Notes: a model not told the origin generated them from the letters alone. DNA of 64,000 nucleotides from Candidatus Multivorans sp. (GCA_965222875.1 CBDCVC010000003.1:706567-770566), one strand, 5' to 3'. Positions 548-62,121 are shown, counted from the stretch's first letter. Numbers and translations are program-made.

Positions 548-1011
548 GTGAGTCTCCGGTCGAGAAGGGGGTTGGTGGTCCCGCAAGCGAGACGGCTTCA
601 ACGCTCTCTCGAGAAGACTTCTACAGGAGAGTGAACCGGAGGAGGCGCCGAGACCGCGGATACGCGGCTCGTTGACTCATCTCTCGGTAGCCCCGCGAGC
701 GGACTCCCGTAGGAGTTGGCACCTTCCCTGGGTTGCGAAGCCCCGGTGGTTGCCCCGGCTTCAACGGGCCCAATCCCTCGGCCGGTCTCGATGAGTGCTC
801 CGGCGACGGGAACCGCACCGGAACGCAGGGGATCGTAGCAGATCGTCCGTTGGCGTTGCCAAGGTCAGAGCAGGCGACCTGCTATGCTGCGGCACGACAC
901 AGACCGAACCACGGTCGACGTTGATCGAAGTGCAGCGTCGGCCGTTCCGGCTTGCTTGACTTGGTTGCCCGCACTTCCAGTTCCGGGAGTGCATTTACTA
1001 GGAGACCTGGG

Positions 1012-6040: not shown

Positions 6041-6241
6041 CGACGACGCGGCCGCGGTCCCCCGACCGCGCCGATCCTGCGGCCGTCGGGCCGCGGCTCG
6101 GATAGAGTTTTCCAGACTGCGCCGGCTCGGGAACAACCGAGGCGGGTGGCGGGTTGGAGAAGGCGTAGACGGGGCTACCCGTGCGCGAATCCGAGGCTTG
6201 TCCCTCCCTGGCCGGAACCCCTGCTGGCGCTCATCCAGGAA

Positions 6242-7333
<1,092 letters not shown>

Positions 7334-7354
7334 GGTCGCTTCGGAGCGTGATCG

Positions 7355-8356: not shown

Positions 8357-8359
8357 GTC

Positions 8360-12495: not shown

Positions 12496-12499
12496 GTCG

Positions 12500-37001: not shown

Positions 37002-37628
37002 CTACTGGACTGCCGCCCTGGCGGCCTCGAGCAGGACGGTTTCCGGTAGACGGACCTTGTAGTCCGGATTCACGTAGTGGAAAGCGATCCGGCCCTCGGT
37101 ATCCAGCACGAAGACGGCAGGCACGGGCAGCATGTGGTGATCGTCCCCGGCGTACTCCTCGAGGTCGAGCCGGTAGGACTCCCGATACCGCCGGACAATC
37201 TCCTCGTCGCGGAAGGCGATCCCGAACGCCCGCGAGGCCTCCATGCCCCGGTCGGAGAGCAGCCGGTACTTCAGCTCGTTCTTGTCGACGGTGGCCTGCA
37301 GTTGGTCCGCGATATCGGGTGAGATGGCGAACAACTGGTAGCCGAGGTTGATCAGATCCTGCTCGATTTCTTGCAACTGACCCAGTTGCGTATTGCAGTA
37401 CGGTCACCAGCCGCCGCGGTAGAAGATCAGGATCGTCGGCTTGGCCTGCGCCTCGGTGAGCAGATCGACTTCGCCGCCGTCGGCGGTGGGGAGTCGAACG
37501 TCCGGTACGGCGCTGCCAACCAGGAGCGGCCGAATGTCCTCTGCCGAGGCCGGAACGTCGGCGGCGGAAGCGGAAGAAACGGTAGCGCTGACAAGGGCCG
37601 CGCCGGCTAGGAAAGTCGTGGTTCGCAT
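37002..37628 (-). CDS. Peroxiredoxin-like / redoxin (AhpC-TSA fold) selenoprotein candidate with in-frame UGA (Sec) replacing the first Cys of the CxxC motif
   Basis: ORFs 37404..37628 and 37002..37376 are in the same frame, separated only by TGA (complement of 37404-37406). Read-through gives signal peptide ...PTILIFYRGGW-U-PYCNTQLGQLQEIEQDLINLGYQLFAISPD..., i.e. the redoxin FYRG.WCPYC motif with U in place of C. Candidate SECIS hairpin 15 nt downstream. Confidence 0.7.
37370..37392 (-). promoter_or_regulatory. Candidate bacterial SECIS stem-loop downstream of the in-frame UGA
   Basis: mRNA sense: UGA-ccguacugcaauacg-CAACUG-ggu-CAGUUG. Perfect 6-bp stem with a GGU apical loop beginning 16 nt after the UGA. 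Spacing and G/U-containing loop fit bSECIS expectations. Confidence 0.55.
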
Positions 37629-37933
37629 GGCGGGCAGAGTATCACGCAGGCCGGTGTCGAGAACCCTGGTTTGCTTCGCGCGCGGCTCTCCGCCGTTCGA
37701 TGAGTTGCGACGATGCCGCCGCCCTCGGCGATCCTCTCCGGCCAGTGAACGATCAGCGGCGAGGCGATCCCGCCCTCGTGGACCCAGTCCTTGTACACGC
37801 GGGAGGGCGTGTTGCTGACGTGCGCCCAGTGCGGGCCGTAGCCGCTAAGATGCTGGTAGATTGGGGACGAGGGACTCTGGACGAGTCGCAGGTTCCCGGC
37901 TCAGCGACTCCTATTGATCGACGGCCCCTGTGA

Positions 37934-40900
37934 GTGGAGGCTCTCATGTCTTGTTTCTTGATGTCGCGCAGCGCGGCGCGGCGGATCGCCGGCATCCGTG
38001 GGCATCTCTTGGGTACAGCGCGAGCGGGTCTACTGGCGATGACGGCGATCATGCTGGTCGCGGCGCCGGTCCAGGGCCAACGCTTGTTGAGTCTGGTGTC
38101 GCAGGCGGCTCAGCCCGTATCTGCCGGCGCTCCGGACCTGCCGTTCGCTAACCCTTCGTTTGCCGCGCAAGTCGATCTGGACCTGCTTCGTAGCGGGCCA
38201 CCGCGGCTGGAGTTGCCGACACCGGACGGCCGTGTGCTGGTTGCGGAGCGCAACGTGTTCGAGGATCGCGGCAGCGGAGACCTGATGTGGTCCGGCGGTC
38301 TACCGGGCGCAGGCTACGACAGCGTAGTCCTCACGTTGGAAGGTGGCCGCTTCGTGGGTTGGTTCCACGAGCCCGGGGGAGTGAGGTACCGGATCAGCGC
38401 CCGTCCTGACGGCGTCGGTCGCATGGAGTCCGGGTTCGCCCTGCCGGGTCGAGAGCCGGAGGCCGTCTGTGCGGTGGGCGCCGGCGCCGACCGGCAAGCA
38501 CCGGTCGCTCCGGTGCGTATGGCTGGGGCGCTGTTCCACGATCCGCCCACGCGAGTGGGCGCCGCGCAGAGTCACGACGCGCTTGACATCGTTGTCGTCT
38601 ACAACCCCGAGGCGGCGCGGAACTGGGCGAATCGCGGCGGCGCCCAAGCGGCGATCCAGAGCGCCGGCGACTACCTGAACATGGTTCTGCGAAATGGCCG
38701 CGTGGATGTGAGCGCGAACATCGTCCATAGCGCCCAGATTTCCGGCATCGATCGGGTGGGCAGGAATGGGAGTGGTCTGTACGGCGCCTCGATCATCGAT
38801 CAGCTCGGCTTCCACGGGGAGGCGCTCCGACTGCGAAGAGAGCACAGAGCCGACCTGGTCCACCTGTTCACCGGTGAGTCTCCGTGGTTGTTCGAAGCCT
38901 GCGGCCAGCACTACGTCCTTAGTCGCGATCAGACCGCCGAAGACTTCTCGGAGTTGGCCTACGGATGGACGTCGAACGCGTGCTCGGGCGACGGACCGAT
39001 CTTCGCCCACGAAGTGGGCCACGGTCTGGGCGCCCACCACGACCCGGCAAACGGCCCCCCTCCGGTGTTTGCGTTCAGGCCTTATGCCTTCGGTCACGGC
39101 AATCACGATCACATCCCGAACGTCGGCACGATCATGAGCTACACCGGCCAGGGCGAGCCGTACCTTTCGAGTGTCCGGGTCAAGCCCCAGGGTCGGGTCA
39201 TCGGTGTCGCCGGCGAGCGCGAGAACGAACGCGCGCTGCAGGAGACGATTCACATCGGCGTCCATTACAGCGATTCGGTCGCTCGGCTGCCGCCGGACGC
39301 TCCGGCGGCGCCGACGAGTCTGCAGGTGGTGATGGAGAGCGAAACCTCGGTTCGGCTCAACTGGCAGGACAACGCGACGGACGAGGATGGCTATGAAGTG
39401 ACGTTCTGGCGTCTAGGACAGGATGAGGCCACGAGGCCGTTGGAAGGTCGCACGACGGCGGTGGTCGACCTTCCCGTGGCCGATGCCGGTGCGCGGTACT
39501 TCTTCTGGGTCAATGCCGTAAGGGGCGAAACCGATTCCGCGAGGTCAAGCACCGTCACACTCGTGACTCCGGGCGCTGAGCCAGCGGCACCGTCCGGTCT
39601 CATGTGGCAACCGGTGCCTGTGGAGGATCCGGCCCGGATGGGAACGAACAGCGCGCGGGTGACCTGGGTGGACGACTCGGACGACGACGCCTACTTGTTC
39701 GAAGTACATCTGCTGTCTGACGGGCAGCTATTGCGGCGCAGTTACGTATCAGGGAACGCGGATTCGACCGTGATCTCGCGGCTGGCGCCCGGCCGCCGCT
39801 ACCAGGTGCGCGTGTATGCCCTTGGTCCGGGGGGCATCTCCCGCAGCAGCGAGTTATTGGGTCTCCTGTCGCCCGCCGCGCCCGGCCCGAGGCCGGTCAT
39901 GAACCTGACAGCGAGTGCCGATAGCGCCTCGTCGGTTCGTCTGACCTGGACCGACAACTCCGACGACGAACGCGGCTTCCGGGTCCTGGCCTTGGTCTCG
40001 GGCTGGTTCGGTCTGTTCGAGGCGGAAGCCGGCAGCGAGTCGATCGAGATCGATGGGCTCGCGCGCGGCGGCAGCTACGTCTTTTTTGTGTGGCCGTACA
40101 ACGATGCGGGCCCTGGCGATCGCATCGGGGTCGCCCTGCCGCTGGAGACCGCCGGGCGAGGTCCCGCCGCGCCGACGAAGCTCCGCTGGGGTGTCTCTGG
40201 TGGCGTTGCCCGTCTCACCTGGGACGACAACTCGCGCGACGAGACGGGATTCGAGATTCAGTCGCGTCCCGACTACGAGACTCAGGACACCGTCGTCGTC
40301 GGGGGCGGCCGCTGGACCCGGGTGGCCATGGCGCCCACTGGCGCCAGATCGTTCGACTTGGATCGCAGCGAGGAAGTCGACTACCGCGTCTTTGCCTACA
40401 ACGAGACCGGTTTCTCGAAGAGCAGCAACACGGTCAGAGGGAACCCGTTTCAGGACCCCGACCCGCCGCCGGCGGAGGACGGCCGGCTGACGGCGATTCC
40501 ATCCGGCGAAACCTCGGTGGAGCTGTCCTGGACGGGCAGGTGGACTCGGGCGGCTCGGGGCACGCTCTCTATCGAGGCGCGAAACCCGGCCAGCGGCTGG
40601 GTCGAAGTGGCGGCTGCCGCCCCGACGCTCGGGAACACCGTTGTCACGGGTTTGGAGGCGGAGACGCCCTACACGTTCCGGCTTCGTGCCGGCCGGGCGG
40701 ACTACTCCGAAGATGTCAGTGTGACGACCGGCGCCTTTGAGGGTGCTTGCCGGGAGGGCTCGGGGTACCTCTGTCTGCGAGACGGGCGCTTTGAAGTGCG
40801 GGTGCACTGGAGCAAGCCGGACAGCGTCGGTGAGTACGGCTTGGGCACGGCCGTGCCGGTGGATGTTTCGGACGAGTCCGGACTGTTCTGGTTCTTTGAA

Positions 40901-41575
40901 CCGGAGAACATCGAGTTGGTGGTGAAGGTCCTGGACGGCCGGACATTCAATGACCGTTACTGGGTGTTCTTTGGCGCGTTGTCCGATGTTGAGTACTGGA
41001 TCACCGTAAGAGATGCGGCGAGCGTTGGGTGGCAGACGTACCACAACCCGCCGAGGGAGGTGTGCGGGCAGAGGGACCTCGTAGCGTTCAGCGATGCGAC
41101 CGTGAGGTCGGGCCGGCAGGCCGCCGGTGGGCTCGGTCCAGGTCTACCGGGTGTCGACCTGCTGCGGATGAACGCGGTGCCGCTCGACGTGAAAGGCATC
41201 GGCCGAGCGAGCCATGAAGGCGGTCACTGCGAGGCGGGTGACTATCGGCTGTGTCTCCTGGACGGCCGCTTTTCCGTTGAGGTCGGCTTCGTCGATCCGA
41301 ACGGCGAGACCGGCCTTCAGGAGCCTGCGAAGGCGATCTCGTCGCTCGCCATGGAGAAGACCGGGTTCTTCTGGTTCTTCAGCCCCTCGAACATCGAGCT
41401 GGCTGTGAAGATGCTGGACGGCCGCGCCCTCAACAGCCACTTCTGGCTCCTCTATGGGGGCCTGTCGGATGTCGAGTACGAGATCACGGTCACGGACACG
41501 GTGACCGGCAGTGCCAAGCCCTATCGCAACGAAGCGGGAAGCATCTGCGGTGTGATCGATACAGAGGCCTTCTAG
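37934..41575 (+). CDS. Secreted multidomain zinc metalloprotease (metzincin-type HExxHxxGxxH) with several fibronectin type III domains and two tandem C-terminal Cys-flanked domains
   Basis: Signal peptide. IFAHEVGHGLGAHHD zinc motif at about nt 39008. At least four FN3-like units (VRLNWQDNATDEDGYEV, VRLTWTDNSDDERGFRV, ARLTWDDNSRDETGFEI, VELSWTG). Two about-110-aa C-terminal repeats (C.LCL.DGRF.V.V......SGLFWFF.P.NIEL.VK.LDGR..N..W...G.LSDVEY.ITV.D...G.......CG). Confidence 0.75.
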   Translation: MEALMSCFLMSRSAARRIAGIRGHLLGTARAGLLAMTAIMLVAAPVQGQRLLSLVSQAAQPVSAGAPDLPFANPSFAAQVDLDLLRSGPPRLELPTPDGRVLVAERNVFEDRGSGDLMWSGGLPGAGYDSVVLTLEGGRFVGWFHEPGGVRYRISARPDGVGRMESGFALPGREPEAVCAVGAGADRQAPVAPVRMAGALFHDPPTRVGAAQSHDALDIVVVYNPEAARNWANRGGAQAAIQSAGDYLNMVLRNGRVDVSANIVHSAQISGIDRVGRNGSGLYGASIIDQLGFHGEALRLRREHRADLVHLFTGESPWLFEACGQHYVLSRDQTAEDFSELAYGWTSNACSGDGPIFAHEVGHGLGAHHDPANGPPPVFAFRPYAFGHGNHDHIPNVGTIMSYTGQGEPYLSSVRVKPQGRVIGVAGERENERALQETIHIGVHYSDSVARLPPDAPAAPTSLQVVMESETSVRLNWQDNATDEDGYEVTFWRLGQDEATRPLEGRTTAVVDLPVADAGARYFFWVNAVRGETDSARSSTVTLVTPGAEPAAPSGLMWQPVPVEDPARMGTNSARVTWVDDSDDDAYLFEVHLLSDGQLLRRSYVSGNADSTVISRLAPGRRYQVRVYALGPGGISRSSELLGLLSPAAPGPRPVMNLTASADSASSVRLTWTDNSDDERGFRVLALVSGWFGLFEAEAGSESIEIDGLARGGSYVFFVWPYNDAGPGDRIGVALPLETAGRGPAAPTKLRWGVSGGVARLTWDDNSRDETGFEIQSRPDYETQDTVVVGGGRWTRVAMAPTGARSFDLDRSEEVDYRVFAYNETGFSKSSNTVRGNPFQDPDPPPAEDGRLTAIPSGETSVELSWTGRWTRAARGTLSIEARNPASGWVEVAAAAPTLGNTVVTGLEAETPYTFRLRAGRADYSEDVSVTTGAFEGACREGSGYLCLRDGRFEVRVHWSKPDSVGEYGLGTAVPVDVSDESGLFWFFEPENIELVVKVLDGRTFNDRYWVFFGALSDVEYWITVRDAASVGWQTYHNPPREVCGQRDLVAFSDATVRSGRQAAGGLGPGLPGVDLLRMNAVPLDVKGIGRASHEGGHCEAGDYRLCLLDGRFSVEVGFVDPNGETGLQEPAKAISSLAMEKTGFFWFFSPSNIELAVKMLDGRALNSHFWLLYGGLSDVEYEITVTDTVTGSAKPYRNEAGSICGVIDTEAF

Positions 41576-51142: not shown

Positions 51143-51763
51143 GTGATTCCACTGGCGGCAGCGCTCGCGGCGCCGATCCTGGGCGCGGCGTTCTACGGAT
51201 TGCTGCATCACCGATCGGGGGCGACCCGGGTGGTGGACGGGCTGGTGTACCTGGCGGTACCCATCCTCGTGGCGGTGCAGGTGTTTCCGCATTCCTTGAA
51301 CACCGAGGACCTGTTGAGCTTGGTGGCGGTGGCTCTCGGCGCCGGCCTCTACTTCGTCCTCGAGCGGATGTCGAGGGTGCTTGCCGCGCAGGCGGACAAT
51401 CTCGCGATCCTGGTTGCTCTCTCGGGGCTGGTGTTACACGCGCTCCTGGAGGGTGCTGCGCTGGCGCCAGGTATGGATCAGTCAGACGCGTTCTTCGTCT
51501 TCGCCGTCGTGCTGCACCGGTTTCCGGTTGGCCTGGTGGTCTGGTGGTTGATCCGTCCGCGGCACGGGGGAGCGGCGGCTTTGGTAGGGGTCGGGGCGAT
51601 CGTTGCGGCGACCCTGACGGGTGCTGCCGGAGGGAGTCTGTTGGCGTCGCCCTCGAACGGCATGGGCCTGGACCTGTTCCAGGCGTTCGTGGCCGGTTCC
51701 CTGTTGCACGTCGTCTTCCACCAGGGCCGGAGTGATCACCGGCACGAGGACGGCGGTCCCTAA
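51143..51763 (+). CDS. Small polytopic membrane protein, possibly divergent ZIP-family metal transporter
   Basis: 6 hydrophobic helices. LHALLEGAALAPG and VLHRFPVGLVVW resemble ZIP motifs (HNFPEGLAV), and HVVFHQG is also ZIP-like. GTG start 51143 after the GhrB stop. Weak call. Confidence 0.4.
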   Translation: MIPLAAALAAPILGAAFYGLLHHRSGATRVVDGLVYLAVPILVAVQVFPHSLNTEDLLSLVAVALGAGLYFVLERMSRVLAAQADNLAILVALSGLVLHALLEGAALAPGMDQSDAFFVFAVVLHRFPVGLVVWWLIRPRHGGAAALVGVGAIVAATLTGAAGGSLLASPSNGMGLDLFQAFVAGSLLHVVFHQGRSDHRHEDGGP

Positions 51764-52470
51764 CTTCGGAACGAGCGGGCGACACGGAAGCCCGTGTCGT
51801 CGGCCGCGAAGTCGGTGGATTCGCGCTTCCGTAGGCCGCAGTGAAGTTCAGCAGCTTCAAGCCGGAAGGAACCGCCGCAGAGCGATCGGTGGCGTTCGTC
51901 GTCGTCCGGGTCGGAGGCGACCCATTCCCAGACACTGCCCAGCATGCCGTGGAGGCCGAAATCGTTTGCAGCCAGGTGCTCGGGCGGCTGGACAAGCCCG
52001 TCCGAGTTGCCGGCGTGCCAGCAACATCGGTCGATCGACTCCGGTGTGGTGTTCCAGGAGGGAACCTCGTTGGCCACGGAAGTGCCTCGGCAGGCATAGC
52101 GCCACTCGACTTCGGTCGGCAGCCGCATCGGTTTGCGGGAGACCTCTGCGTACCACCGGCAGTAGGCGTCGGCCTGCCGCCAGCTCACCCCGACGGCGAG
52201 GTCGCGGTCGCCCGCTGACAGCGGTGGCCGCTGGTAGTCCGGGTCGAAGGCCTCGAACTGTTCGTTCGTGACCGGCCACTTGCTGAGGTAGAAGGGCTCG
52301 ACCGGCGCCGGGCGCCCCTCGGTCTCGATCTCGCCACCCGGGATCAACCACAGGATGGTGCGCGGAACGTGGGCGTAGGAGCGGGGCAGCGGGCGGCGCT
52401 CGGTGCTGGCCACGGGGCTACCTGAGTCAGGACGGTCGGCCGAACACCTTGGGCGTCGGCATCCGGGCAC
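51760..52470 (-). CDS. Formylglycine-generating-enzyme (SUMF1/FGE-sulfatase domain) family protein
   Basis: YLSKWPVTNEQFEAF...VGVSWRQADAYCRWY...RLPTEVEWRYACRG...GNVWEW-like GSVWEWVAS...GGSF are FGE-domain hallmarks. N-terminus/start uncertain (overlaps the rSAM gene end by about 40 nt if 52470 is used). Confidence 0.75.
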   Translation of the reverse strand: MPGCRRPRCSADRPDSGSPVASTERRPLPRSYAHVPRTILWLIPGGEIETEGRPAPVEPFYLSKWPVTNEQFEAFDPDYQRPPLSAGDRDLAVGVSWRQADAYCRWYAEVSRKPMRLPTEVEWRYACRGTSVANEVPSWNTTPESIDRCCWHAGNSDGLVQPPEHLAANDFGLHGMLGSVWEWVASDPDDDERHRSLCGGSFRLEAAELHCGLRKRESTDFAADDTGFRVARSFRS

Positions 52471-53794
52471 GGATCGCGTCGAGTTCCTCGACGGTCACGG
52501 TCGAAATGCCGTTCTTGCGGCAGTGGGACTCCACCGAGCGGACGACCATGCCGCGGACAAAGGCCGGCACCCGCTTCATCCGCGCTTCCGCCTCGGGTTC
52601 CCAGGCGATGCTGGTCGAGGTGTCCTCGCCGTAGCGGGAAAGGGACGCGAGCCCGGTTCGGTCCCCGAGCGCCGCGAGTTGCTGCGGCGAGAAGGACCCG
52701 GGGTCGTGGGTGCACAGCGGATCTTCCGCCATGAGGTCGCCGGTCATGCCGTAGGCGCGGGCGCGGCAGCCGCCGCAGACCGACTGCAGCTCGCAGGAAC
52801 CGCACCGGCCGCCGAGGTCCTTGCGGCGCCGGATGTCCTGGAACAGCTCGGAGTCGTTCCAGACCGCGGACAGCGTCGAACGCTTCAGGTTGCCGCCGAA
52901 GACGGGCAGGTACGGGCAAGGGGTGACGTCGCCGTTCGGGCGGATCCCCATGTAGTGGGTGCCGGCCGGGCAGCCGCCGGCGCCGCCGTCGAAGGCCTTG
53001 AGGAAGGGCGAGTCGGGATCGCCGGACAGCAGTTGACGAACGTAGTGGGGCGCGCACTTCGCGTTGACCACCATGCGGCCGCGGTAGTCGCGCTGAATCT
53101 GTTCCAGGGAGGCGAGGACGTCGTCGTAGTCGGACGGCGAGAGGTCGGACACGAACTGGCCGCGGCCCGTGGGCACCAGGAAGTACAGGTTCCAGACCCG
53201 GGCCTGGAGCTCGGTATAGGCGAACGCGGCGATCTCCTCCAGTTCCCCGCGGTTGTGTGCCCCGGCGGTGGTCTGGATGATGAAGGGAAGGCTGGCTGCG
53301 GCCAGGTGTTTGGCGCCGTCGACCGTGTTCTGCCAGGCGCCGCGCACGCGGCGGAAACCGTCGTGGACCGACGGATCCAGCGCGTCCAGCGACAGGGCGA
53401 GACCGCGGACTCCTTCGCCGGCCAGGATGCGGGCCAGGTTCTCGGTGATCCGGACGCCGTTGCTGCCGACCACGACCCACAGCTCGCGCTCCGCGGCGTA
53501 GCGGACGATGTCGAGGATGTCGCGCCGCAGCAGCGGTTCGCCGCCGGTGAGGATGACCAGGGCCTCGGGCGCGAACTCGCAGATGTCGTCGATCACCTTC
53601 CGGCACTGGTCGGTGGAGAGTTCCGAGCGATCGGCGAAGTTGGCGGTCTCGACCAGGGGCTTGCCGCCGGCGTCGAGGTAGCAGTGTTCGCAGGCCAGGT
53701 TGCAGCGGTACGTCAGGTTCCAGGAGATGACGTAGGGGCGGGCGAACGCCGCCGGCACGGCGCTCGTCGGTCGCTCCAAGGGTGACAGGGTCAT
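52427..53794 (-). CDS. Radical SAM / SPASM-domain enzyme (anSME-like) fused to a C-terminal PCP_red (BchB C-terminal-like) domain
   Basis: CX3CX2C = CNLACEHC near the N-terminus. SPASM-type Cys clusters (CAPHYV, CPAG, CPYLP, CGSCELQSVCGGCRARA). C-terminal 55 aa IAWEPEAEARMKRVPAFVRGMVVRSVESHCRKNGISTVTVEELDAIRARM match the BchB C-terminal motif W.PEAE..L..IPFFVRGK.....E.FAR..G...I. Confidence 0.8.
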   Translation of the reverse strand: MTLSPLERPTSAVPAAFARPYVISWNLTYRCNLACEHCYLDAGGKPLVETANFADRSELSTDQCRKVIDDICEFAPEALVILTGGEPLLRRDILDIVRYAAERELWVVVGSNGVRITENLARILAGEGVRGLALSLDALDPSVHDGFRRVRGAWQNTVDGAKHLAAASLPFIIQTTAGAHNRGELEEIAAFAYTELQARVWNLYFLVPTGRGQFVSDLSPSDYDDVLASLEQIQRDYRGRMVVNAKCAPHYVRQLLSGDPDSPFLKAFDGGAGGCPAGTHYMGIRPNGDVTPCPYLPVFGGNLKRSTLSAVWNDSELFQDIRRRKDLGGRCGSCELQSVCGGCRARAYGMTGDLMAEDPLCTHDPGSFSPQQLAALGDRTGLASLSRYGEDTSTSIAWEPEAEARMKRVPAFVRGMVVRSVESHCRKNGISTVTVEELDAIRARMPTPKVFGRPS

Positions 53795-53818
53795 GGCGAG
53801 AGCCTCGTGCGCACTCGA

Positions 53819-54292
53819 TCAGGCAATGCCGAAGAAGGAGCGGGCCCGCTCCAGCACCGCCGCGTCGACCTCCTCGTAGCCATGGTCGAGAGCGAACTTC
53901 TCGATTCCGGCGACCGCCGAAGTGCGCACGATGTCCGGGATGTTCGCCAACCGCTCGCGGGCCTCGGCGGTCCAGGGGATGCCTCCTGATTCACCGTTGC
54001 CGGTAGCGCCGCCGCTGCCGGCCGAGTCGGTCCCGGTAGTCGGCATGCCCATCTCGGCCAGCATGCCCGTGAAGGGACACTTCGATGACGTGGCCCCGGC
54101 CTCGGTGCCGGTCTCGGGGCCGATCCGTACGCCGAGCGATCCGACCACCTGGGTCTCGTGGGGATTGGTCATCATGGCCATCTCGGCGGAGCAGGAAGGG
54201 CAGGCATAGACCAGAGCCACGGAACCGCCATCGGGGCCCAGGGCGTGCTTCAGCTTCATCTGTTCGTCGCAGGGTACGCAGAGGAACTTCAT
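53819..54292 (-). CDS. Zn-ribbon + PCP_red-domain small protein
   Basis: N-terminal CxxC...CxxC (FLCVPCDEQ...VYACPSCSAEM). C-terminal IPWTAEARERLANIPDIVRTSAVAGIEKFALDHGYEEVDAAVLERARSFF is a PCP_red-like motif. Confidence 0.6.
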   Translation of the reverse strand: MKFLCVPCDEQMKLKHALGPDGGSVALVYACPSCSAEMAMMTNPHETQVVGSLGVRIGPETGTEAGATSSKCPFTGMLAEMGMPTTGTDSAGSGGATGNGESGGIPWTAEARERLANIPDIVRTSAVAGIEKFALDHGYEEVDAAVLERARSFFGIA

Positions 54293-54372
54293 TCTTTGGT
54301 CTCTGTCGGTGGGAATTAGGTTGGCTTGGTGGGGATCAGGTTGGCCGATCAGAATCAGGTGCTTGGTCCGAT

Positions 54373-55245
54373 TCAGGTTGGCTTGGCGAGGCGGCTCAGG
54401 ATCGAAGCGGCTGCCTCCTCGATCGCGCGGATGACCGGTCCTGGGGCCAGGTCCGCTTCACCGGCATCGGAGGCCGCAGCCAGACGCGGGTCGAACGGTA
54501 CCTTAGCCAGGCAGGGGAGTCCAAGCTCGGGCGCTTCGCCGGCGGCGCCATCGAACAGCGGGCGGACCCCTTCGCACGTTCCGCAGTAGTAGCCGCTCAT
54601 GTTCTCGATGTACCCGAGCACCTCGTTCGGCGTCGTGCCGAGCGCCGCCGCCGAGCGCGCGACGACCCCGCGGGCCAGCGCGGCAGGAATCGTGACGAGC
54701 ACGAAGCGTGCGGTCGGCCCCAGGACCTCGGCGTACTGCAGGGTGCGCTCGGCGCCGGGCGGCAGGTCGACCAGCAGGAAGTCGAGACGACCCCAGTCCA
54801 CCAGGCCGAGCAACTGCTGGAACAGGTTGAACTCGCGGGTTGCGCGCCACACGTGGGAGTCGCCCTTCGCGACGCTCTCGAACTCGAGGTGCTCCGATGC
54901 GGGTACCATGGAGCCCACCGACAGGACGCCCAGACCGTCAGGCGTGCGCGGCAGGGCCATGCCCCGATCGCCAGGCAGCAGCGGAACCTGTTCCAGTCCG
55001 GCCAACCGGGCCTGGCAGGGACCGTTCAGGTCGGCGTCGAGGATCGCGCACCGGCAGCCGGCGCGCCCGAGCGCCAGGGCGAGCTGCATGGTCAGCGTGC
55101 TCTTGCCCACGCCTCCCTTGCCGGAACCGATCGCGACCACGTGATCGATGCCGGCCATGGCCTCGGCGATGCGCTCACGCTGCTGGAGAACCTGCCCGAG
55201 AACGTCGGAACCGCCGTCTCCGGCGACGTCGAAGTAGGTCTTCAT
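54373..55245 (-). CDS. Mrp/NBP35 (ApbC) family iron-sulfur cluster carrier ATPase
   Basis: VAIGSGKGGVGKST (deviant Walker A) and GYIENMSGYYCGTCEG (CxxC Fe-S bridging motif). ATG at 55245. Confidence 0.85.
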   Translation of the reverse strand: MKTYFDVAGDGGSDVLGQVLQQRERIAEAMAGIDHVVAIGSGKGGVGKSTLTMQLALALGRAGCRCAILDADLNGPCQARLAGLEQVPLLPGDRGMALPRTPDGLGVLSVGSMVPASEHLEFESVAKGDSHVWRATREFNLFQQLLGLVDWGRLDFLLVDLPPGAERTLQYAEVLGPTARFVLVTIPAALARGVVARSAAALGTTPNEVLGYIENMSGYYCGTCEGVRPLFDGAAGEAPELGLPCLAKVPFDPRLAAASDAGEADLAPGPVIRAIEEAAASILSRLAKPT

Positions 55246-56087
55246 GGCCCGCGGATGCATTCGAGAAGGCCGGTTCGTCCAGCCAGCGAGCGGGCCGCGG
55301 CGCGAAGCCGCCCGCGGCGGCCGAGTTCCGGATAGGCCGCGCGCTGAAAGATGAGCCCATCGTTCACGATCCAGGGGCGGCTGCGACCGAAGGCGTGACG
55401 ATGCCTCTTCATGTAGACGAGTTCGAAACCGTTCTTCGCCAGCAGGCCGATCAACTCCTGGGGACGGATTCCAAACTGCCAGTACCAATGGTTGTCCCGC
55501 TCCAGCCGTCCGTCTTCGTCACGTTGGTGATGCTTGTCAAACCACGCCTCCAGCCGGGCGCGCGTGTTCCAATCGTCTTCCCAAACGTAGACATTCCTGT
55601 AGTACCAGTCGAGGCCGCGATCGACGAACCGTATGGTTCGTGCAGTCTTCAACCAGTTCTGATTGAAGACAATCAGAACGTTCGTGTGCGGCAGCCAGTT
55701 CAGCAGGAACCTGTCCCAGTCCGGCTTGACCTGGTGCAGCAGGATGTCGTACATGATGAGGGCATCGACCTCGCCGACCGCGTCGAGCGCCTGCTGCGAT
55801 CCGAGGAGGGCCTCGACGAGTTCCACTCTTGGATGTTCCTTCGCGCGCTCCCGGGTCAGAGGAGTCAGGTTGCCGTCGACGATCACCGCTCTCTCCAGCT
55901 CGTTTCCGCAGAGTTCGGCGGCGTGGAACGTGTAGGCGCCATCGACGCCCCAGCAGGCGCCAAGGTCGGCGAAAGACCGGAAGTCGGCGAGCTCGAAGGC
56001 CGTCTCGAGCAGTTCGAGTTTCTCCGGTTTGGGCTGAACCTCGGACTGCGCTCCGATTGGCGTTTCTTCGGCGGAATGAGCGGACAT
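55242..56087 (-). CDS. Hypothetical protein (possible class I methyltransferase-like fold)
   Basis: 281 aa from MSAHSAEETPIGAQ. FADLGACWGVDGAYTF is weakly reminiscent of SAM-MTase motif I. No firm family assignment. Confidence 0.4.
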   Translation of the reverse strand: MSAHSAEETPIGAQSEVQPKPEKLELLETAFELADFRSFADLGACWGVDGAYTFHAAELCGNELERAVIVDGNLTPLTRERAKEHPRVELVEALLGSQQALDAVGEVDALIMYDILLHQVKPDWDRFLLNWLPHTNVLIVFNQNWLKTARTIRFVDRGLDWYYRNVYVWEDDWNTRARLEAWFDKHHQRDEDGRLERDNHWYWQFGIRPQELIGLLAKNGFELVYMKRHRHAFGRSRPWIVNDGLIFQRAAYPELGRRGRLRAAARSLAGRTGLLECIRGP

Positions 56088-56104
56088 GATGGGCAGCGTA
56101 ACAG

Positions 56105-57097
56105 TCACGACCGGGCCGCGTCGCTTTCGTATCGGAGGGTCTTCCGCGTCGCCTGGAAGCCGCAGTCTTCGAGCCGATCCGCCAATGGTTCGGCGGGGTG
56201 CACCCGCGGCAGGTAGAGCGGTCGTTTGGAATCGTTGGCGGCGAAGGCGAGGAGGGGTCCAAGAAGCGCGGGCACCGGCCGCTTGCCGCCGATCGCGAGG
56301 ATCTCGCAGGCTGTGGAGTCGGCAGGCAGGGCGCCGGCCGACGTGGGAGGCAGCGGGCGGGCGATGAACGGCAGGGGGTCGTCGGCGTTCCGGACGCCCC
56401 GGTAGAGAAGATAGGCCTCGAAGCCGCGGTCGGTGGCGATGCCGACGCCCAGTGCTCGCTCCCGCAGGTTGCGGATCGTCTGAGCGGAGCGCTGCCAGCA
56501 ACGGTTCCGCTCCGAGACATCGGCGAACTCGGCGCCGGCGGTGATCTCCGTCGGTGCAACAGTCCCGACCAGGGCGAGGAAGGGGCTGGCGGCAGGGCTT
56601 TCGCCTGTGTGGAGGTAGTCGATCAGGGTTTGCCGTTCAGCGAAACCGCAGGCGTTGAGGAAACGGTGGGCGGCGACGGCTTCCGCCGGAACTTCGACGA
56701 GCATGCGGGTCGGCTCGAGGATCGCCATCTTCTGGCTGAGCGAGGTCATCATGTGGCGGGCATGGCCCTGCCGGCGGTGTTCGGGGTGGACCGCGATGTG
56801 GAGCACGAGGTTGGCCGTGGGCGCCCTCTTCGCTGCGATCAGGACGCCGATCGGGTCGGATCCTGCGAACGCGACCATGCAACTGCTGGTCCAGAGGTTG
56901 ATCTCCCTGGCGAGCCGCTTCATGTGGTCGACTGTGAGCCGCCACGGGACGGCGCCGGGTCCCACGTTGCAGCGGTGGAAGGCCTCGACGATCAGGGGAA
57001 CGTCGTCGGAGCGGCAGAAGCGGTACGCGGACACCGGCCTACTCGGACTGCGGACCGGCAGGCGCCCCGAGCGCGGCCGCCGTGGGGGTCGCGCCAT
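56105..57097 (-). CDS. GNAT acetyltransferase-domain protein with C-terminal extension
   Basis: LVLHIAVHPEHRRQGHARHMM is the GNAT motif A. N-terminal start uncertain (Met at 57097 chosen to avoid overlap with the upstream gene). Confidence 0.5.
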   Translation of the reverse strand: MARPPRRPRSGRLPVRSPSRPVSAYRFCRSDDVPLIVEAFHRCNVGPGAVPWRLTVDHMKRLAREINLWTSSCMVAFAGSDPIGVLIAAKRAPTANLVLHIAVHPEHRRQGHARHMMTSLSQKMAILEPTRMLVEVPAEAVAAHRFLNACGFAERQTLIDYLHTGESPAASPFLALVGTVAPTEITAGAEFADVSERNRCWQRSAQTIRNLRERALGVGIATDRGFEAYLLYRGVRNADDPLPFIARPLPPTSAGALPADSTACEILAIGGKRPVPALLGPLLAFAANDSKRPLYLPRVHPAEPLADRLEDCGFQATRKTLRYESDAARS

Positions 57098-57182
57098 CCG
57101 GGTTCGTTGCGTTCTGCGGTGCAGCCTCCTGGCCGAGCAGATCGTCCAGCTTGAACACGGCGGCCGGCGGAGAAAGCGGAAC

Positions 57183-59339
57183 TCAGGCTTCCGGTTCGCC
57201 GGCCTTGCGCTTCTCGTCAAGTGCCGACATCAGGCCGACCTCGTTCAGGTAAGCGCCGGCCTTCGCGTCCTTCGCCGCCTCGACCTGTGCCTCGCTCGCG
57301 CCGGCTTCGGCGAGAGCGGAGAAGGGACACCGGCCGGCGGCCGTCGCGGCCTTCGTCTCGGCCTCCGCGACCTCGGTCGCCTGGGTTCCTTCGCCCTTGC
57401 CGATCTCGTAGGCGGCGATCATCTGCTCCATCAGCTCGCGGCCGAGCTCGATGCCCTCTTCGACCGTCTTGATCCCGATCCGCGAGATGTGCTTCTCACG
57501 GGCCACCAACTCGACACGCTCCTGGGTCCGGTCCCGCATGAAGCCGGCGGGAACCCGGAGGATGCGGGAGGTCGCTTCGGCCGTCCACTCGTAGCTCGAG
57601 AGCATCGGCACCCGGTCGGCGTCGCGGGCGATGAGCTTCCGCTCGTCGGCCGCCTCGGACGCGCCGTTGCCGGCCGTCTCGGCCGCCTGCTCACGGGCCT
57701 CGATCGTCACCGGCTCACCGGTCTCGTCCTCGATCAGCGCGCGGGCGAACTCGAAGGTGACGGTCGGCAGCTTGCTCATCCGCGCCTTCTTCTCGATCCG
57801 GGCCTTGGCGCGGCGGCGCCGGTAGGCGTCCTCGATCGTCTTGAGGGCCAGACGGGCGTCCGCGGTCCACTTCAGCTTGCGGCCGTCGTAGGTCGTCTCG
57901 ACCTCGAAACCGCCCTCCATCTCGGCGATCCGGTCCAGCATCTCCTCCGTGATCTGCTCGAACGATTCGCTGCCGCAGACGCCGCAGCGGACCGGATCCG
58001 GCTCGGCCGAGGTCACGCCGCACTTGCGGCAGATGAAGGTGGGCCGGCTGCGCGCGAGCTCCAGGGCGACCTGCTCGGCCAGCGCCTCCGTCTCGCGTGC
58101 CGTGTACTTCGGCATGTAGCGGTCCATCGCCTCGTCCAGCACGTCGCTCGAGATCACGCTGTGTCCCTGCTCGACTGCCAGCCGGTAGAGCGCGGTGCGG
58201 GCGATCCCGCGGACCTGCTCGGGGACGCGCTCGAAGCGCTCCTCGGCCTCGGGCGTCCAGCGGATGCTCTCCTCGGCCTTGACGTCGAGTTCGGGGTACT
58301 CGAGACGGGTGGTCAGCAGGAGGTCGCAGGGGCAGGAACGGAGCAGGTTCTCGGCGTTGCTGCCGAGGCCGGTCTCGCTCTCGTCGCTATGCACGCCGAC
58401 GCGGCCGATCACGAGCATCCAGGGATCGATCTTCCGGGCGTGGTCGAGGACCTTCTGGAACGCCTTGCCGTCGAGCAGGCTCTTCGTCAGCTCGACGCCG
58501 ACCCCGGTTGCCATCGTCTCGGCGACGTCCAGGTGCGACTGGTAGATCTGCGCCAAGCCGGTGTCGATGATCTCCTCGTGGAGCTGGTTCTGCTCCTCGA
58601 AGCGGAAGATCTTCGCGGCGCGCTCCGTCAGCACGTTGACCACGCCCTTGAACACGGAGTAATGGAGGTACGGATCGTAGACCGAGATCGCCTCGACCTT
58701 CTTGCCGAAGCGCTTCGCCAGGTCGATGGCGGTCATCAGGGCGCCGAAGGACTGGGGCGAACCGTCGACTCCGACCAGGATCGTGTCGCGGCCGTCGGCC
58801 TTGTCGTGGTGGCCGTTGCCGTTGGTCGCCGTGCCGTTGCTCTTCGAAGGCAGGCGCTTGATCACCAGCACGTCCTTGTCGGCGGTGCGGGCGACCCGCT
58901 CGCAGACCGAGCCGATCTGCGTGTCGCGGACGCGGCCGATGCCCATCACGCCGAGCACGGTCAGGTCGTAACCGGACTCGCGGATGTCGCGCACGATCTC
59001 GACGTGGTGCTTGCCGTCCATCATCTTCGGCTCGAACTCGAGGTCGGCTTCGTCGCAGACCGCCTTCATCGGCTCGAGGTAGCTCTCCGAGATGAGCTCC
59101 AGCCCCATCGTGATCAGGGAGTCGTGGATCTTCCGCTGGCGGTCGAGTTCCGTCTCCTCGAGGTACTCGTCCGGCAGCGTGTACTCCATCTGCTTGAAGC
59201 GGTAGTCGTGCATGCTGGCCGCGTAGACGTGGCAGCCGACCATCCTGGAGTCGAACTTCCGGCCCAGTTCGACCGCGGAGGCGATCGCCTGGTTGGAGTA
59301 GTCCGAGTTGTCGAGCGGGACGTAGATCGTCTTGTACAT
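57183..59339 (-). CDS. Multidomain protein: two universal-stress-protein (UspA) domains + Zn ribbon + three PCP_red-like repeats
   Basis: USP 1 (YKTIYVPLDNSDYS...VLGVMGIG...VCERVARTADKDVLVI) and USP 2 (ILVGVDGSPQS...WMLVIGRVG...LLRSCPCDLLL). PCP_red-like segments IRWTPEAEERFERVPEQVRGIARTALYRLAVEQGHSVISSDVLDEA, LKWTADARLALKTIEDAYRRRRAKARIEKKAR and YEWTAEATSRILRVPAGFMRDRTQERVELVAREKHISRIGIKTVEEG. Zn ribbon CRKCGV...CGVCG. Confidence 0.7.
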   Translation of the reverse strand: MYKTIYVPLDNSDYSNQAIASAVELGRKFDSRMVGCHVYAASMHDYRFKQMEYTLPDEYLEETELDRQRKIHDSLITMGLELISESYLEPMKAVCDEADLEFEPKMMDGKHHVEIVRDIRESGYDLTVLGVMGIGRVRDTQIGSVCERVARTADKDVLVIKRLPSKSNGTATNGNGHHDKADGRDTILVGVDGSPQSFGALMTAIDLAKRFGKKVEAISVYDPYLHYSVFKGVVNVLTERAAKIFRFEEQNQLHEEIIDTGLAQIYQSHLDVAETMATGVGVELTKSLLDGKAFQKVLDHARKIDPWMLVIGRVGVHSDESETGLGSNAENLLRSCPCDLLLTTRLEYPELDVKAEESIRWTPEAEERFERVPEQVRGIARTALYRLAVEQGHSVISSDVLDEAMDRYMPKYTARETEALAEQVALELARSRPTFICRKCGVTSAEPDPVRCGVCGSESFEQITEEMLDRIAEMEGGFEVETTYDGRKLKWTADARLALKTIEDAYRRRRAKARIEKKARMSKLPTVTFEFARALIEDETGEPVTIEAREQAAETAGNGASEAADERKLIARDADRVPMLSSYEWTAEATSRILRVPAGFMRDRTQERVELVAREKHISRIGIKTVEEGIELGRELMEQMIAAYEIGKGEGTQATEVAEAETKAATAAGRCPFSALAEAGASEAQVEAAKDAKAGAYLNEVGLMSALDEKRKAGEPEA

Positions 59340-59450
59340 GGCGGTTTCTCTTGAGTTGGGCTCAGGTGGTGTCCGAGAGAGGAGAGTAGTCCGAGAGAGG
59401 AGAAGTGGTCTTCCGAGATGTGGGGCTATCGATGCCGGAATGGGCTGCGG

Positions 59451-61184
59451 TCAGACGGCGGTGGCCTCGGTACCCGCGAGGGCGGTCTCGTCGCCGGCCG
59501 ATGCCTGGTTCGCGCGTCGGCGGACCAGGAACACGACGAGCAATTCGATCACAAGCACGATGAAGGCGGCGCGCAGCACCGGGATCGTCGCTGCCTGCCT
59601 CACGCTGGGTTCGGTGTAGACGTAGAACCAGGACGACAGGGCGCGCTTGTTGCCGCGTTCCCGGTTGAAGCCGTCCCAGACGCTGAAGGCGATCGGGGTG
59701 TACTGCTGCTCGGCGAAGCTGACGCCGGCGCGCGACGCGCGCCGGCGCTTGGTTGTCACCGTCCACTCGCCCTGGTCGTAGGAGGTCACGGCCTCGACGA
59801 TGTCGGCCTCGGTCGGCTCGATCGCGTCGCTGCCGCGACCGCGGAAGGTGTCCGCGACGCCATAGGTCAGGTTGACGAACCAGAGGTCGACGGGGTTCGA
59901 GCTGTCGCCGAACAGGAAGTACGGTTTGAGCTGGGGGGTGTCCTCGGGCGCGAGCGAGGCCGGGAACTGGAGCGCCACCGCATCCGAGAACTCGGCGCCG
60001 TCGCTGCCGGCGTCGTCGCCGCCGCCAAAGAAGTCGTCGTCCGTGCCGAAGAAGTCGTCGGCGCTGTCGTCCTCGGGCTCCTCCTCGACGCCGAAGAAGC
60101 CGCCGTCCCCTCCGTCACTGTCTCCCGAGTCGATGTCGTTGTCCTCGTCCCACATCGGTACTTCGAGGGCCGGACTGTTCCGGCCGGTGTTGTCGGCGCG
60201 CAGGTCGTTCCAACGCACACGGAAGGCGATCTCGCCGCGGTTGTAGACGGCCTGAGCCTCGATCGAGGTCACGGACGGATAGAAGTTGCGACCCGGTTCG
60301 GTGATCTGCCCGACCAGGGGGAAGCGGGTCATCGGCGCGGTCTCGAACAGGGCGTCGAGCGCTTCCGCGTCCTGCAGGTCGATCGCCTCCTCGGTCCAGG
60401 CAGCGGTGATCAGGGTGCCGTAGCCGGAGTCGTCTCCGTCGCCCAGGAAGTACACGTAGTTCACCAGGTGCTGGCGGTCCTCCACTTCCAGCGAGTCGGC
60501 GTACGACGGCATCGGGGTGCCGTTCAGCCCGGTGGAGAAGGTGCGGTAGATGTCCTCCTTGGTCGGACCGCCGCGGAACGTCCAGCGTTGGGTCAGGTCG
60601 GCGATCTTGATGGGATCGCCCTTGTCGTTGACCAGGGTCGGTGCCGAAGAGCCGTCGCCGCGACCGACGTCGCCGTGGCATGCGCCGCAAGCCTGCTCCT
60701 CGTACAACTGCCGGCCACGGGCGATCGACTCCTCGGTCGACTCGAGCGGCCGGGGAATGTCGATGGGCTCACCGTAGCGGTCCGGGTTCTCGAAGTCGGG
60801 CGAGAAGGACTTGATGTAGTAGATGACGTTGTCGATTTCGGTGCTCGTCAGGTTGGGCCAGCCCGGCATCGACGTGTAGGGGAGGCCGATTTCGATCGCG
60901 CGGCGCAGGTCGTCGTCCGTGGGAAGCATCCCGTTCGGCGTGGTGCGGAACTTGTACTTGCCGGACGTGAAGTCGCGCGGCTTCGGCTTGACCCGTAGTG
61001 TGGCGTGGCCGTTGCCGTCGCCGGTGTCACCGTGGCACTGGCCGCAGTACTTGTCGTAGACCACCTTGCCGGCCGCTCGCTGTTCCTCGGTGCCGAGGTC
61101 GACCTGGGCGGCCAGGGGCGCGGCCAGCAGGGCGGCGCCCACGGCTACGGACGGTACGGCCGCGAGAATGTGACGCACGGACAT
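59451..61184 (-). CDS. Periplasmic di-heme c-type cytochrome (large, Asp/Gly-rich linker)
   Basis: Signal peptide. Two CxxCH (CGQCHGDTGDGNG and CGACHGDVGRGDG). Acidic linker (EDNDIDSGDSDGGDGGFFGVEEEPEDDSADDFFGTDDDFFGGGDD). Confidence 0.7.
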   Translation of the reverse strand: MSVRHILAAVPSVAVGAALLAAPLAAQVDLGTEEQRAAGKVVYDKYCGQCHGDTGDGNGHATLRVKPKPRDFTSGKYKFRTTPNGMLPTDDDLRRAIEIGLPYTSMPGWPNLTSTEIDNVIYYIKSFSPDFENPDRYGEPIDIPRPLESTEESIARGRQLYEEQACGACHGDVGRGDGSSAPTLVNDKGDPIKIADLTQRWTFRGGPTKEDIYRTFSTGLNGTPMPSYADSLEVEDRQHLVNYVYFLGDGDDSGYGTLITAAWTEEAIDLQDAEALDALFETAPMTRFPLVGQITEPGRNFYPSVTSIEAQAVYNRGEIAFRVRWNDLRADNTGRNSPALEVPMWDEDNDIDSGDSDGGDGGFFGVEEEPEDDSADDFFGTDDDFFGGGDDAGSDGAEFSDAVALQFPASLAPEDTPQLKPYFLFGDSSNPVDLWFVNLTYGVADTFRGRGSDAIEPTEADIVEAVTSYDQGEWTVTTKRRRASRAGVSFAEQQYTPIAFSVWDGFNRERGNKRALSSWFYVYTEPSVRQAATIPVLRAAFIVLVIELLVVFLVRRRANQASAGDETALAGTEATAV

Positions 61185-61242
61185 CAGTGCTGCCCCGGGA
61201 CGCGTGGCTCGTAGGCGGCGAAGCGGATGGAATGACCCGACA

Positions 61243-62121
61243 TCAGTGCTGCCCCAGCGCGCGCGGCTCGTAGCCGTTGAAGTCGTAGAGGAACAGGTTG
61301 ACGTCCCACATCTCCTCGGTGGTCAGGAACAGCTCCCACGCGGGCATGGCGCTGTCCCAGGGAGTGCCTCCCGCGGGAAGACCGGGTCCCCCCTTGGCGA
61401 TCCGCCAGTGAACAAAGGAGGACTGCAGGATCGGCAAGGTGCCGACGTCGTTGAAGTTGCTGGGCACCGGGTTCAGGCCGTGGGCGAACATGCCGTCGCC
61501 GCCCATGCCGTCGCCGTGGCACCAGAAGCAGTTCTCGTAGTAGACGCGGCGGCCGTTCTCCAGGTGCTCCTCGTACGCTTCCGGGTCGTCCTCGTGAAGA
61601 TCGGTGTACGGGTTGTCGGCGGTCGCCATGTCGATCGTCTCGTCGTGGACGGTGATCTCCGCGGGCGGAGGCGGATGAACCTCGCGCCCGAAACCGGGCG
61701 CCTCGAGCGGAACATTCATGTCCGCGTAGACGTTGTAGGCGGCCAGGGCCGGCAGCGCCACGAGTACCGCGGCCAGAAGCGGCCGGCGCCGCGGTTCAAG
61801 GATGAGCCGCACGATCGGCCCGACGGTCTCGGACAGGCGCTCGCGGCTCGACGAGGCGTAGCAGACCAGAGCGAGCGTAGCGATCCCGAGGTAGATCGTC
61901 GCCACCGACTGCGGGATCGGTACGGCGAAGCCGAACTTGAAGAAGGCCCACAGCGCGATCCAACTGAAGAGCAGCCAGGTGAGTGTGTTCGCCCGGCGCC
62001 AGATCAGCACGCCGGCGACCGCGGCCAGGCCAAGAAGAACCGGTAGGTTGAGTCCCCACATGATCGAGTCAGTTCCGTGAAGGTTCGGGGGCCGGGTGGC
62101 TGCCCACCAGGGAGCAGTCAC
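61243..62121 (-). CDS. Membrane-anchored mono-heme c-type cytochrome (3 N-terminal TM helices + cytochrome c domain)
   Basis: TM helices in residues 20-110. CFWCHGDGMGGDG heme-binding motif. Confidence 0.65.
   Translation of the reverse strand: MTAPWWAATRPPNLHGTDSIMWGLNLPVLLGLAAVAGVLIWRRANTLTWLLFSWIALWAFFKFGFAVPIPQSVATIYLGIATLALVCYASSSRERLSETVGPIVRLILEPRRRPLLAAVLVALPALAAYNVYADMNVPLEAPGFGREVHPPPPAEITVHDETIDMATADNPYTDLHEDDPEAYEEHLENGRRVYYENCFWCHGDGMGGDGMFAHGLNPVPSNFNDVGTLPILQSSFVHWRIAKGGPGLPAGGTPWDSAMPAWELFLTTEEMWDVNLFLYDFNGYEPRALGQH

Follow-up and report, generated by a model that had tools for sequence, protein, structure and literature searches.

Our analysis of a 64,000-nucleotide stretch of the Candidatus Multivorans sp. 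genome (GCA_965222875.1 CBDCVC010000003.1:706567-770566; hereafter the window, with positions counted from its first letter) centers on a minus-strand gene at 37628..37002 that is interrupted by a single in-frame TGA. In all likelihood, this is one gene encoding an exported thiol/selenol:disulfide oxidoreductase, built on a BCP/PrxQ-like scaffold with a U-P-Y-C active site, whose UGA is recoded as selenocysteine (Sec) by means of a bacterial selenocysteine insertion sequence (bSECIS). The gene, its UGA, and the hairpin that follows it are conserved. An earlier reading of this DNA, made from the sequence alone (the sequence-only reading), had proposed a selenoprotein with Sec in place of Cys; that proposal is now supported by the conservation of the UGA across genomes, by selection on both halves of the gene, by covariation within the hairpin, and by the use of TGA as a normal stop elsewhere in the window.

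The interval 37002..37628 holds a single reading frame of 209 codons, that is, 208 residues counting Sec plus the terminal TAG, running from an ATG at 37626-37628 to the TAG at 37002-37004. Its only internal stop is the TGA at 37404-37406 (codon 75), which lies in the context ILIFYRGGW-TGA-PYCNTQLGQLQ and, read as Sec, would supply the first position of a U-P-Y-C (CxxC-type) motif; the predicted Sec-spanning peptide is GGW-U-PYCNTQLGQLQEIEQ. Between them, the two open reading frames (ORFs) reported for this region, 37404..37628 and 37002..37376, make up this one frame, just as the sequence-only reading had it; the apparent start of the second at 37376 simply marks the first TTG to follow the TGA. 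By inspection, the N-terminus carries a predicted signal peptide of the general secretory (Sec) type (residues 1-22, 37563..37628, minus strand; MRTTTFLAGAALVSATVSSASA / ADVP, with an A-S-A cleavage motif), through which the protein would be exported. An equivalent hydrophobic segment is present at the N-terminus of every ortholog examined, and a signal-peptide-like segment of this kind is common to all full-length homologs.

With Cys substituted for the stop, residues 37-183 match the Pfam domain AhpC-TSA (PF00578; AhpC-TSA / Redoxin in Pfam terms) at 94.5 bits against a cut-off of 26, and the match runs across the UGA. The nearest relatives of the protein (81-94% identity) are all stored in public databases as 124-residue fragments covering only the C-terminal 60%, several of them derived from 4-5 Mb chromosomes, which bears out the earlier expectation that gene callers would truncate the gene. 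Relatives at ~55% identity are full-length CxxC “peroxiredoxin-like family proteins” of ~200-340 residues. The public gene calls, together with the ORF-finder output, correspond to a two-gene interpretation, in which a 74-residue secreted peptide ends at the TGA and a 124-residue protein begins at the TTG at 37374-37376. We consider the probability of this arrangement negligible, as the AhpC-TSA domain bridges the junction and the full-length homologs are collinear over it, with an invariant FYRGGWCPxC. Moreover, the 124-residue piece would be missing the initial strands of the predicted fold along with its active site, and its putative TTG start is a Leu codon within the 3' arm of the hairpin.

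We recovered 80 loci by scanning species-representative genomes. Thirty-four of these are close orthologs, all from Acidobacteriota labeled as Thermoanaerobaculia, “Ca. Multivorans”, Holophagales, or Vicinamibacteraceae; their isolate names suggest that many are metagenome-assembled genomes from sponges or corals. Among the chromosomes bearing the ortholog are OZ245033.1, OZ244786.1, OZ242167.1, and OY762911.1. The TGA occupies the codon-75 column in all 34 and also in three distant acidobacterial loci (L037, L039, and L040; 51-58% identity). Cys occupies the same column in 41/41 readable Cys-type genome loci, which come from many other phyla, and in 24 full-length proteins the residue opposite U75 is the invariant first Cys of WCPxC; the TGA does, then, fall on the first Cys of the redoxin motif, as had been claimed. 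When metagenomes were searched with the DNA pattern G-W-TGA-P-Y-C-N/K, at least 120 contigs matched. Among the 120 matches listed, ~110 encode FYRGGW-U-PYCN with a frame that stays open for at least 130 codons past the TGA, and the UxxC genes in this set split into several subfamilies. These alignments point to an in-frame UGA at a Sec/Cys pair position kept across organisms, the generic mark by which selenoproteins are recognized.

Selection on the coding sequence offers a further line of evidence. Across the orthologs, the ratio of nonsynonymous to synonymous substitution (dN/dS) is 0.208 over the 50 codons before the UGA and 0.136 over the 133 codons after it, and purifying selection on both sides implies that both halves are translated and functional. 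The sequence-only reading had looked to orthologs for conserved sequence on both sides of the UGA; this is what they display, with no pseudogene pattern overall. A pseudogene would be a former Cys-type peroxiredoxin-like gene inactivated by a TGC- or TGT-to-TGA nonsense mutation. Several facts are in keeping with such an origin: the TGA is one base away from either Cys codon, databases store only the 124-residue C-terminal fragment, three orthologs (L032, L033, and L034) carry additional defects, and the Sec machinery was not seen in the window or in the ortholog flanks. However, 37 genomes, at 51-94% protein identity, and ~110 metagenome genes among the matches listed share the same TGA, purifying selection is stronger after the stop than before it, and the TGA is followed by a covarying, synonymously constrained hairpin that is largely absent from Cys-type genes. 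Taken with these observations, gene inactivation is extremely improbable.

The hairpin in question (37373..37389, minus strand) is a bSECIS-type element, GCAACUG-GGU-CAGUUGC, with its 5' arm GCAACUG at 37383-37389, a GGU loop at 37380-37382, and its 3' arm CAGUUGC at 37373-37379. The sequence-only reading had correctly noted a hairpin with a GGU loop and the CAACUG arm from the 16th nucleotide, but the perfect stem comprises 7 bp rather than 6 and begins 14 nt after the UGA. Published bSECIS limits (PMC13188914) specify a loop of 3-9 nt, an upper stem of 4-16 bp, a G in the first two loop positions, a UGA-to-loop spacing of 16-37 nt, and a minimum free energy of no more than -7.5 kcal/mol. The window hairpin falls within all of them, having a 3-nt GGU loop that begins 21 nt after the UGA, a 7-bp stem, and a folding energy of -8.9 kcal/mol.

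Comparison across loci strengthens the case for a functional RNA element. In 37/37 Sec-type genome loci, the same place is taken by a perfect stem of 7-8 bp that closes a GGY loop, in three versions: GCAACUG/CAGUUGC, GCAGUUG/CAACUGC, and CUCAGCUC/GAGCUGAG. For the covariation analysis, we assembled 48 distinct sequences in the hairpin register of the window; 92.2% of their stem cells are paired, versus 23-44% once the pairing partner is offset by 1-3 columns, and both sides have changed in 5/8 stem pairs. Cells with a double change number 49, against 19.4 +/- 3.0 in shuffles, and none of 500 shuffles reaches the observed value, although these statistics overstate independence, since many of the Sec-type sequences are closely related; clearly distinct versions of the stem do occur, however. 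The stem was also found independently by RNAalifold, and codon heterozygosity, a measure of synonymous diversity, is 0.019 within the hairpin versus 0.239 elsewhere in the orthologs. Because the arms encode a near-palindromic peptide, QLGQL, Cys-type genes were used as a control: only 58.5% of their cells are paired, the full stem is present in 1/41, and one Cys-type locus (L068) encodes the identical QLGQLQ peptide without the hairpin.

Several additional features were observed around this element. A long-range lower stem with the UGA inside it was suggested by RNAalifold; we rejected it as not Sec-specific, the Cys-type genes being nearly equal in this respect (86.6% vs 80.7% paired). Low synonymous diversity extends outside the hairpin as well (37341-37439, minus strand; codons -11..+3 and +14..+21 from the UGA, including EQDLIxLG), and we do not attribute it to the long-range stem, given that the latter is not Sec-specific. 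Among the metagenome loci (L081-L200), the hairpin register itself varies. The 3-nt loop lies at the Gly codon in QLGQL/QLGEL types, the hairpin is shifted by 1 nt in LELEAL types, and LELRSLQ types have a 5-nt loop 3 nt further on; inside a single protein family, the SECIS seems to have slid or been rebuilt several times over. In the Cys-type locus L047 (Lysobacterales), the site matching 37373-37389 carries an 8-bp hairpin with an AGC loop (-11.2 kcal/mol). It could be the relic of a change from Sec to Cys or a chance product of the palindromic peptide, and two further Cys-type loci (L070 and L063) have weaker hairpins at the SECIS position.

Full-length translation, as implied by the selection data, does not by itself imply the identity of the inserted residue, and the UGA might instead be read through or reassigned, with a suppressor tRNA or a changed code supplying Trp, Gly, or Cys. 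Against such decoding, 20/37 coding-like frames of the window end in TGA, and its 64 kb contain neither a further credible internal TGA nor another selenoprotein candidate, the remaining TGA bridges being ordinary gene ends; TGA is accordingly an ordinary stop elsewhere in the window, which speaks against a general reassignment of UGA. Furthermore, the UGA falls exactly at the redox Cys column, as in known Sec/Cys pairs, the downstream hairpin fits the bSECIS model, and genes with the WUPYC signature are already cataloged as selenoproteins. Finally, in another acidobacterium, a member of the family adjoins a tRNA-Sec-selDAB cluster. With these points in view, we regard non-Sec decoding of the UGA as very improbable and retain Sec as the probable residue.

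The cluster just mentioned was recovered in a tblastn search with E. coli SelA, SelB, and SelD against 2.0 Mb of sequence, in which the metagenome contig L182 was the sole match. Its Sec cluster (L182:1148-7481) comprises a tRNA-Sec with anticodon UCA (2760-2854) and a selD that itself contains Sec (2921-3973; SSCAG-U-AGK), followed by selA and selB; divergently adjacent to it, on the minus strand with its TGA at 1745, stands a UxxC Prx-like gene of the broad family. The SelA of L182 is 97% identical to that of “Candidatus Acidiferrales bacterium”, which identifies the contig as acidobacterial (Acidoferrales-like). The Sec trait is therefore present in the phylum and adjoins the broad Prx-like family on this contig. 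Selenoprotein genes seldom lie immediately next to the Sec machinery, and the arrangement may point to a functional connection. With the SelA of L182 as the query, a search returned 120 matches, and another selD-selA-selB operon was noted at P0211/L201. Selenoproteins were already recorded in Acidobacteria in 2006 (PMC1794560).

We examined the fold of the family through a confident AlphaFold model of a 56%-identical Cys homolog (predicted local distance difference test, pLDDT, 87.9; predicted TM-score, pTM, 0.82). Its best PDB matches are Bcp4, BcpB, AhpE, and PrxQ, with target TM-scores of 0.8-0.9 at 18-24% identity. The BCP/PrxQ and AhpE peroxiredoxins (PDB 3hjp, 5epf, 1xvw, 2cx3, and 5iiz) are thus the nearest solved folds; unlike them, the window protein has an extra helical insertion that bears an HH motif. 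Invariant motifs of the full-length homologs are FYRGGWCPxC, SPD, LSD, HHxLPxP, and NPxYxxR. The HHxLPxP motif corresponds in the window protein to H164-H165-M-L-P168-V-P170 (37119..37139, minus strand), of which H164, H165, L167, P168, and P170 are invariant.

At the active site, the counterpart of U75 is the first Cys of the WCPYC motif of 3hdc and the Ser of the BCP 2cx3 (FFPAAFSPVC vs FYRGGWUPYC). Cys78 (37395..37397, minus strand), the second residue of the UxxC motif, is an invariant column that aligns with both structures, in 2cx3 with the peroxidatic Cys of BCP/PrxQ peroxiredoxins. The suggestion that U might align with a resolving or peroxidatic Cys is not upheld by these alignments: the first Cys of the CxxC motif corresponds to the Thr/Ser position of peroxiredoxins, and it is Cys78 that stands at the peroxidatic position. 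When compared with the peroxiredoxin signature PxxxT/SxxC, the window protein has Arg for Pro and Sec for Ser/Thr, with the Cys alone kept. P168 may correspond in position to the catalytic Arg of peroxiredoxins and to the cis-Pro loop of thioredoxin-fold oxidoreductases. As the peroxiredoxin Pro and Thr are absent, the protein is ‘Prx-like’ and not a peroxiredoxin. The protein combines a peroxiredoxin fold with a thioredoxin-like active site.

NCBIfam models for established peroxiredoxins score far from their cut-offs (thiol peroxidase PRK09437 51.7/140, AhpC 27.1/272, PrxQ 19/260, and PrxU 22.5/270), and no NCBIfam equivalog comes near its cut-off for the window protein. Without a model at its cut-off, automatic pipelines will continue to miss the gene. 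Two fusions among the homologs, one to a second thioredoxin-like domain (P0049) and one with a sub-threshold TRASH-like tail, are the only hints at a substrate.

These features also bear on whether the protein, while a true selenoprotein, acts as a peroxidase (a Sec-dependent peroxiredoxin or an enzyme like glutathione peroxidase, GPx) instead of a disulfide oxidoreductase. Its fold is nearest to the BCP/PrxQ/AhpE peroxidases, Cys78 sits at the peroxidatic position, and peroxides could be reduced by a selenolate placed where the active-site helix begins, much as Sec reduces them in GPx. Conversely, the active-site Pro and Thr are replaced (FYRGGWUPYC vs FFPAAFSPVC), the Arg position appears to be Pro, the P0049 homolog is fused to a second thioredoxin-like domain, and the literature separates UxxC Prx-like proteins, as thioredoxin-like, from TxxU Sec-peroxiredoxins (PMC1088965). 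On balance, a peroxidase role is unlikely, and we favor a thiol/selenol:disulfide oxidoreductase.

For such an oxidoreductase, motif, fold, and family suggest the following course of events. The UGA at codon 75 would be recoded to Sec during translation, with the 7-bp GGU-loop hairpin serving as a bacterial SECIS that brings SelB-GTP-Sec-tRNA(Sec) to the ribosome, presumably through SelB binding. The product would then be exported through its signal peptide to the periplasm or secreted. There, the selenolate of Sec75 would act as the nucleophile attacking an oxidized substrate, whether a disulfide, a sulfenic acid, or possibly a peroxide, and Cys78, the presumed resolving partner, would resolve the adduct via a selenenylsulfide with Sec75, which an envelope thiol relay could re-reduce. 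A more specialized possibility is that the subfamily is an envelope selenoenzyme with its own chemistry, involving a metal, a metalloid, or a specific oxidant at a Sec-Cys-His-His site, and that Sec was fixed for an advantage in the oxidative environment of a sponge or coral host. The hints toward it are the two invariant His residues, the single sub-threshold TRASH-like fusion, and the clade-wide fixation of Sec, and we treat it as a rather improbable speculation.

In weighing the preferred interpretation of a Sec-containing disulfide oxidoreductase, we also considered the observations that count against it, in addition to the relatedness of the sequences in the covariation set and the near-palindromic peptide encoded by the hairpin arms. 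Taken singly, the 71-nt stretch around the UGA folds no better than shuffles (z = +0.56), so that the case for the hairpin depends on comparative data, and comparable folding occurs at the hairpin site in 3/41 Cys-type genes. Three of the 34 close orthologs are irregular: L032 has lost the normal stop and stays open for 553 codons, L033 has its N-terminal part out of frame, and L034 has an extra stop 12 codons upstream of the UGA; these may reflect either gene decay in some genomes or assembly errors. Searches of the window and of the 37 acidobacterial loci with +/-10 kb around them turned up neither selA, selB, selD, nor tRNA-Sec, and we infer Sec decoding in the lineage of the window from sequence. 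More specifically, no tRNA of any kind was detected in the 64-kb window and no tRNA-Sec in the 37 loci, and Pfam assigned no sel gene to any of the 30 window genes scanned. In a second, weak alignment segment (1.5 bits), KRAVF of BCP is matched here by VPAVF, which would put Pro in place of the catalytic Arg. Lastly, a conserved-neighborhood comparison revealed no recurrent neighbor gene across 166 loci, and the lack of a conserved operon partner leaves the assignment of substrate and reductant unsupported.

Placed against previously described selenoproteins, the window gene finds a clear home. The Global Ocean Sampling (GOS) study described “Prx-like 1, pfam00578, UxxC” with 225 Sec sequences and 2,740 Cys homologs (PMC2398784), and a 2026 review lists the “Prx-like thiol:disulfide oxidoreductase, PF00578, UxxC/UxxU” as predicted with high confidence (PMC13188914). 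The ‘Prx-like 1’ of the GOS study is the same family as the ‘Prx-like protein’ of the Sargasso Sea and the ‘Prx-like thiol:disulfide oxidoreductase’, exemplified by WP_010940744.1 (Geobacter), and this Prx-like UxxC selenoprotein family has been known since 2004-2005. Supplementary sequences labeled “#Prx-like 1” in the GOS study include proteins with the same W-U-P-Y-C signature, one of which (JCVI_READ_1091141146517) can be aligned gap-free with the window protein along 174 residues (31% identity, E = 1e-28). The shared PF00578 domain, UxxC motif, and full-length similarity make the window gene a member of the known Prx-like 1 family, with which it also has in common a SECIS directly downstream of the UGA and widespread Cys homologs. 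It differs from other members in its signal peptide, in having HHxLPVP for SWTLPIP and NPDYKVR for DPDYTRRPEP, and in the fixation of the Sec form across its acidobacterial (Thermoanaerobaculia) clade.

Other relatives stand further apart. The Sec-peroxiredoxins (Prx, TxxU; NCBIfam PrxU) belong to the same superfamily and are likewise bacterial selenoproteins, but they carry Sec at the peroxidatic, fourth position, whereas the window protein carries it at the first position of UxxC. Like ResA/TlpA/CcmG (DsbE), the window protein is predicted to be exported and has a W-C-x-x-C-type site at the start of the active-site helix, with matches to 3hdc (WCPYC) and the ResA structure 4nmu. Unlike them, it has a fold nearer to BCP-type peroxiredoxins, and its scores against the ResA, DsbE, and StoA models are well below their cut-offs (27.9/170, 19.8/123, and 20.1/210, respectively); no cytochrome c maturation or DsbD/CcdA gene was seen near the window gene. 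SelL-related proteins (NCBIfam NF040769) are selenoprotein relatives with a Prx-like fold and give the second-best NCBIfam match, yet the score of 42.8 bits is well under the 120-bit cut-off, so the window protein is not a member. We found no report in the literature on ‘Candidatus Multivorans’ or on Thermoanaerobaculia together with selenocysteine.

Within the window, the selenoprotein gene is flanked by glyA, an enoyl-CoA hydratase gene, and a gene for an M12/FN3 protein, and no promoter or terminator motif was found around it. Directly upstream, a short frame (37661-37900, minus strand; GYGPHWAHVSNTPSRVYKDWVHEGGIASPLIVHWPERI) looks like the C-terminal portion of a sulfatase before degenerating; its sole Pfam match is SGSH_C (E = 0.32), and it is possibly a gene remnant. 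The divergent gene at 37934-41575 (plus strand) encodes a protein of 1213 residues that combines an M12/reprolysin-like metallopeptidase domain with fibronectin type III repeats and with two C-terminal repeats of an unassigned Cys-containing module, C.EG..YLCL.DGRF.V....

Elsewhere in the window, an Rfam scan found no family above its gathering score except an S-adenosylmethionine (SAM) riboswitch at 674-797 (minus strand; RF00162, 73.3 bits). At 6146-14350 (plus strand), genes for a MoxR AAA ATPase, DUF58/VWA, TPR, and BatD proteins stand in a row, forming an aerotolerance (Bat)-type operon. The cluster at 51760-62121 (minus strand) encodes an FGE-sulfatase domain protein, a radical SAM/SPASM and PCP_red protein, a Usp and PCP_red protein, and multihaem cytochrome c / EB_dh-domain proteins, and looks like an unusual redox or maturation locus.

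The window gene leaves current knowledge of the selenoprotein family and of the recoding mechanism unchanged, and would not surprise a specialist. Its value lies chiefly in annotation: every public genome of the clade stores the gene as a 124-residue fragment that has neither the signal peptide nor the active site. It also provides a clean, well-controlled example of a bSECIS, in which 48 different sequences share one register, Cys-type genes serve as the negative control, and the register shifts between subfamilies. We conclude that the gene is a new, mis-annotated addition to the known Prx-like 1 family and represents a distinct, signal-peptide-bearing subfamily, in which the Sec form is fixed across marine and sponge-associated Thermoanaerobaculia (‘Ca. 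Multivorans’). For the biology of these organisms, this means that the use of Sec very probably extends across a whole group of host-associated marine Thermoanaerobaculia, one of whose selenoproteins is very probably exported.

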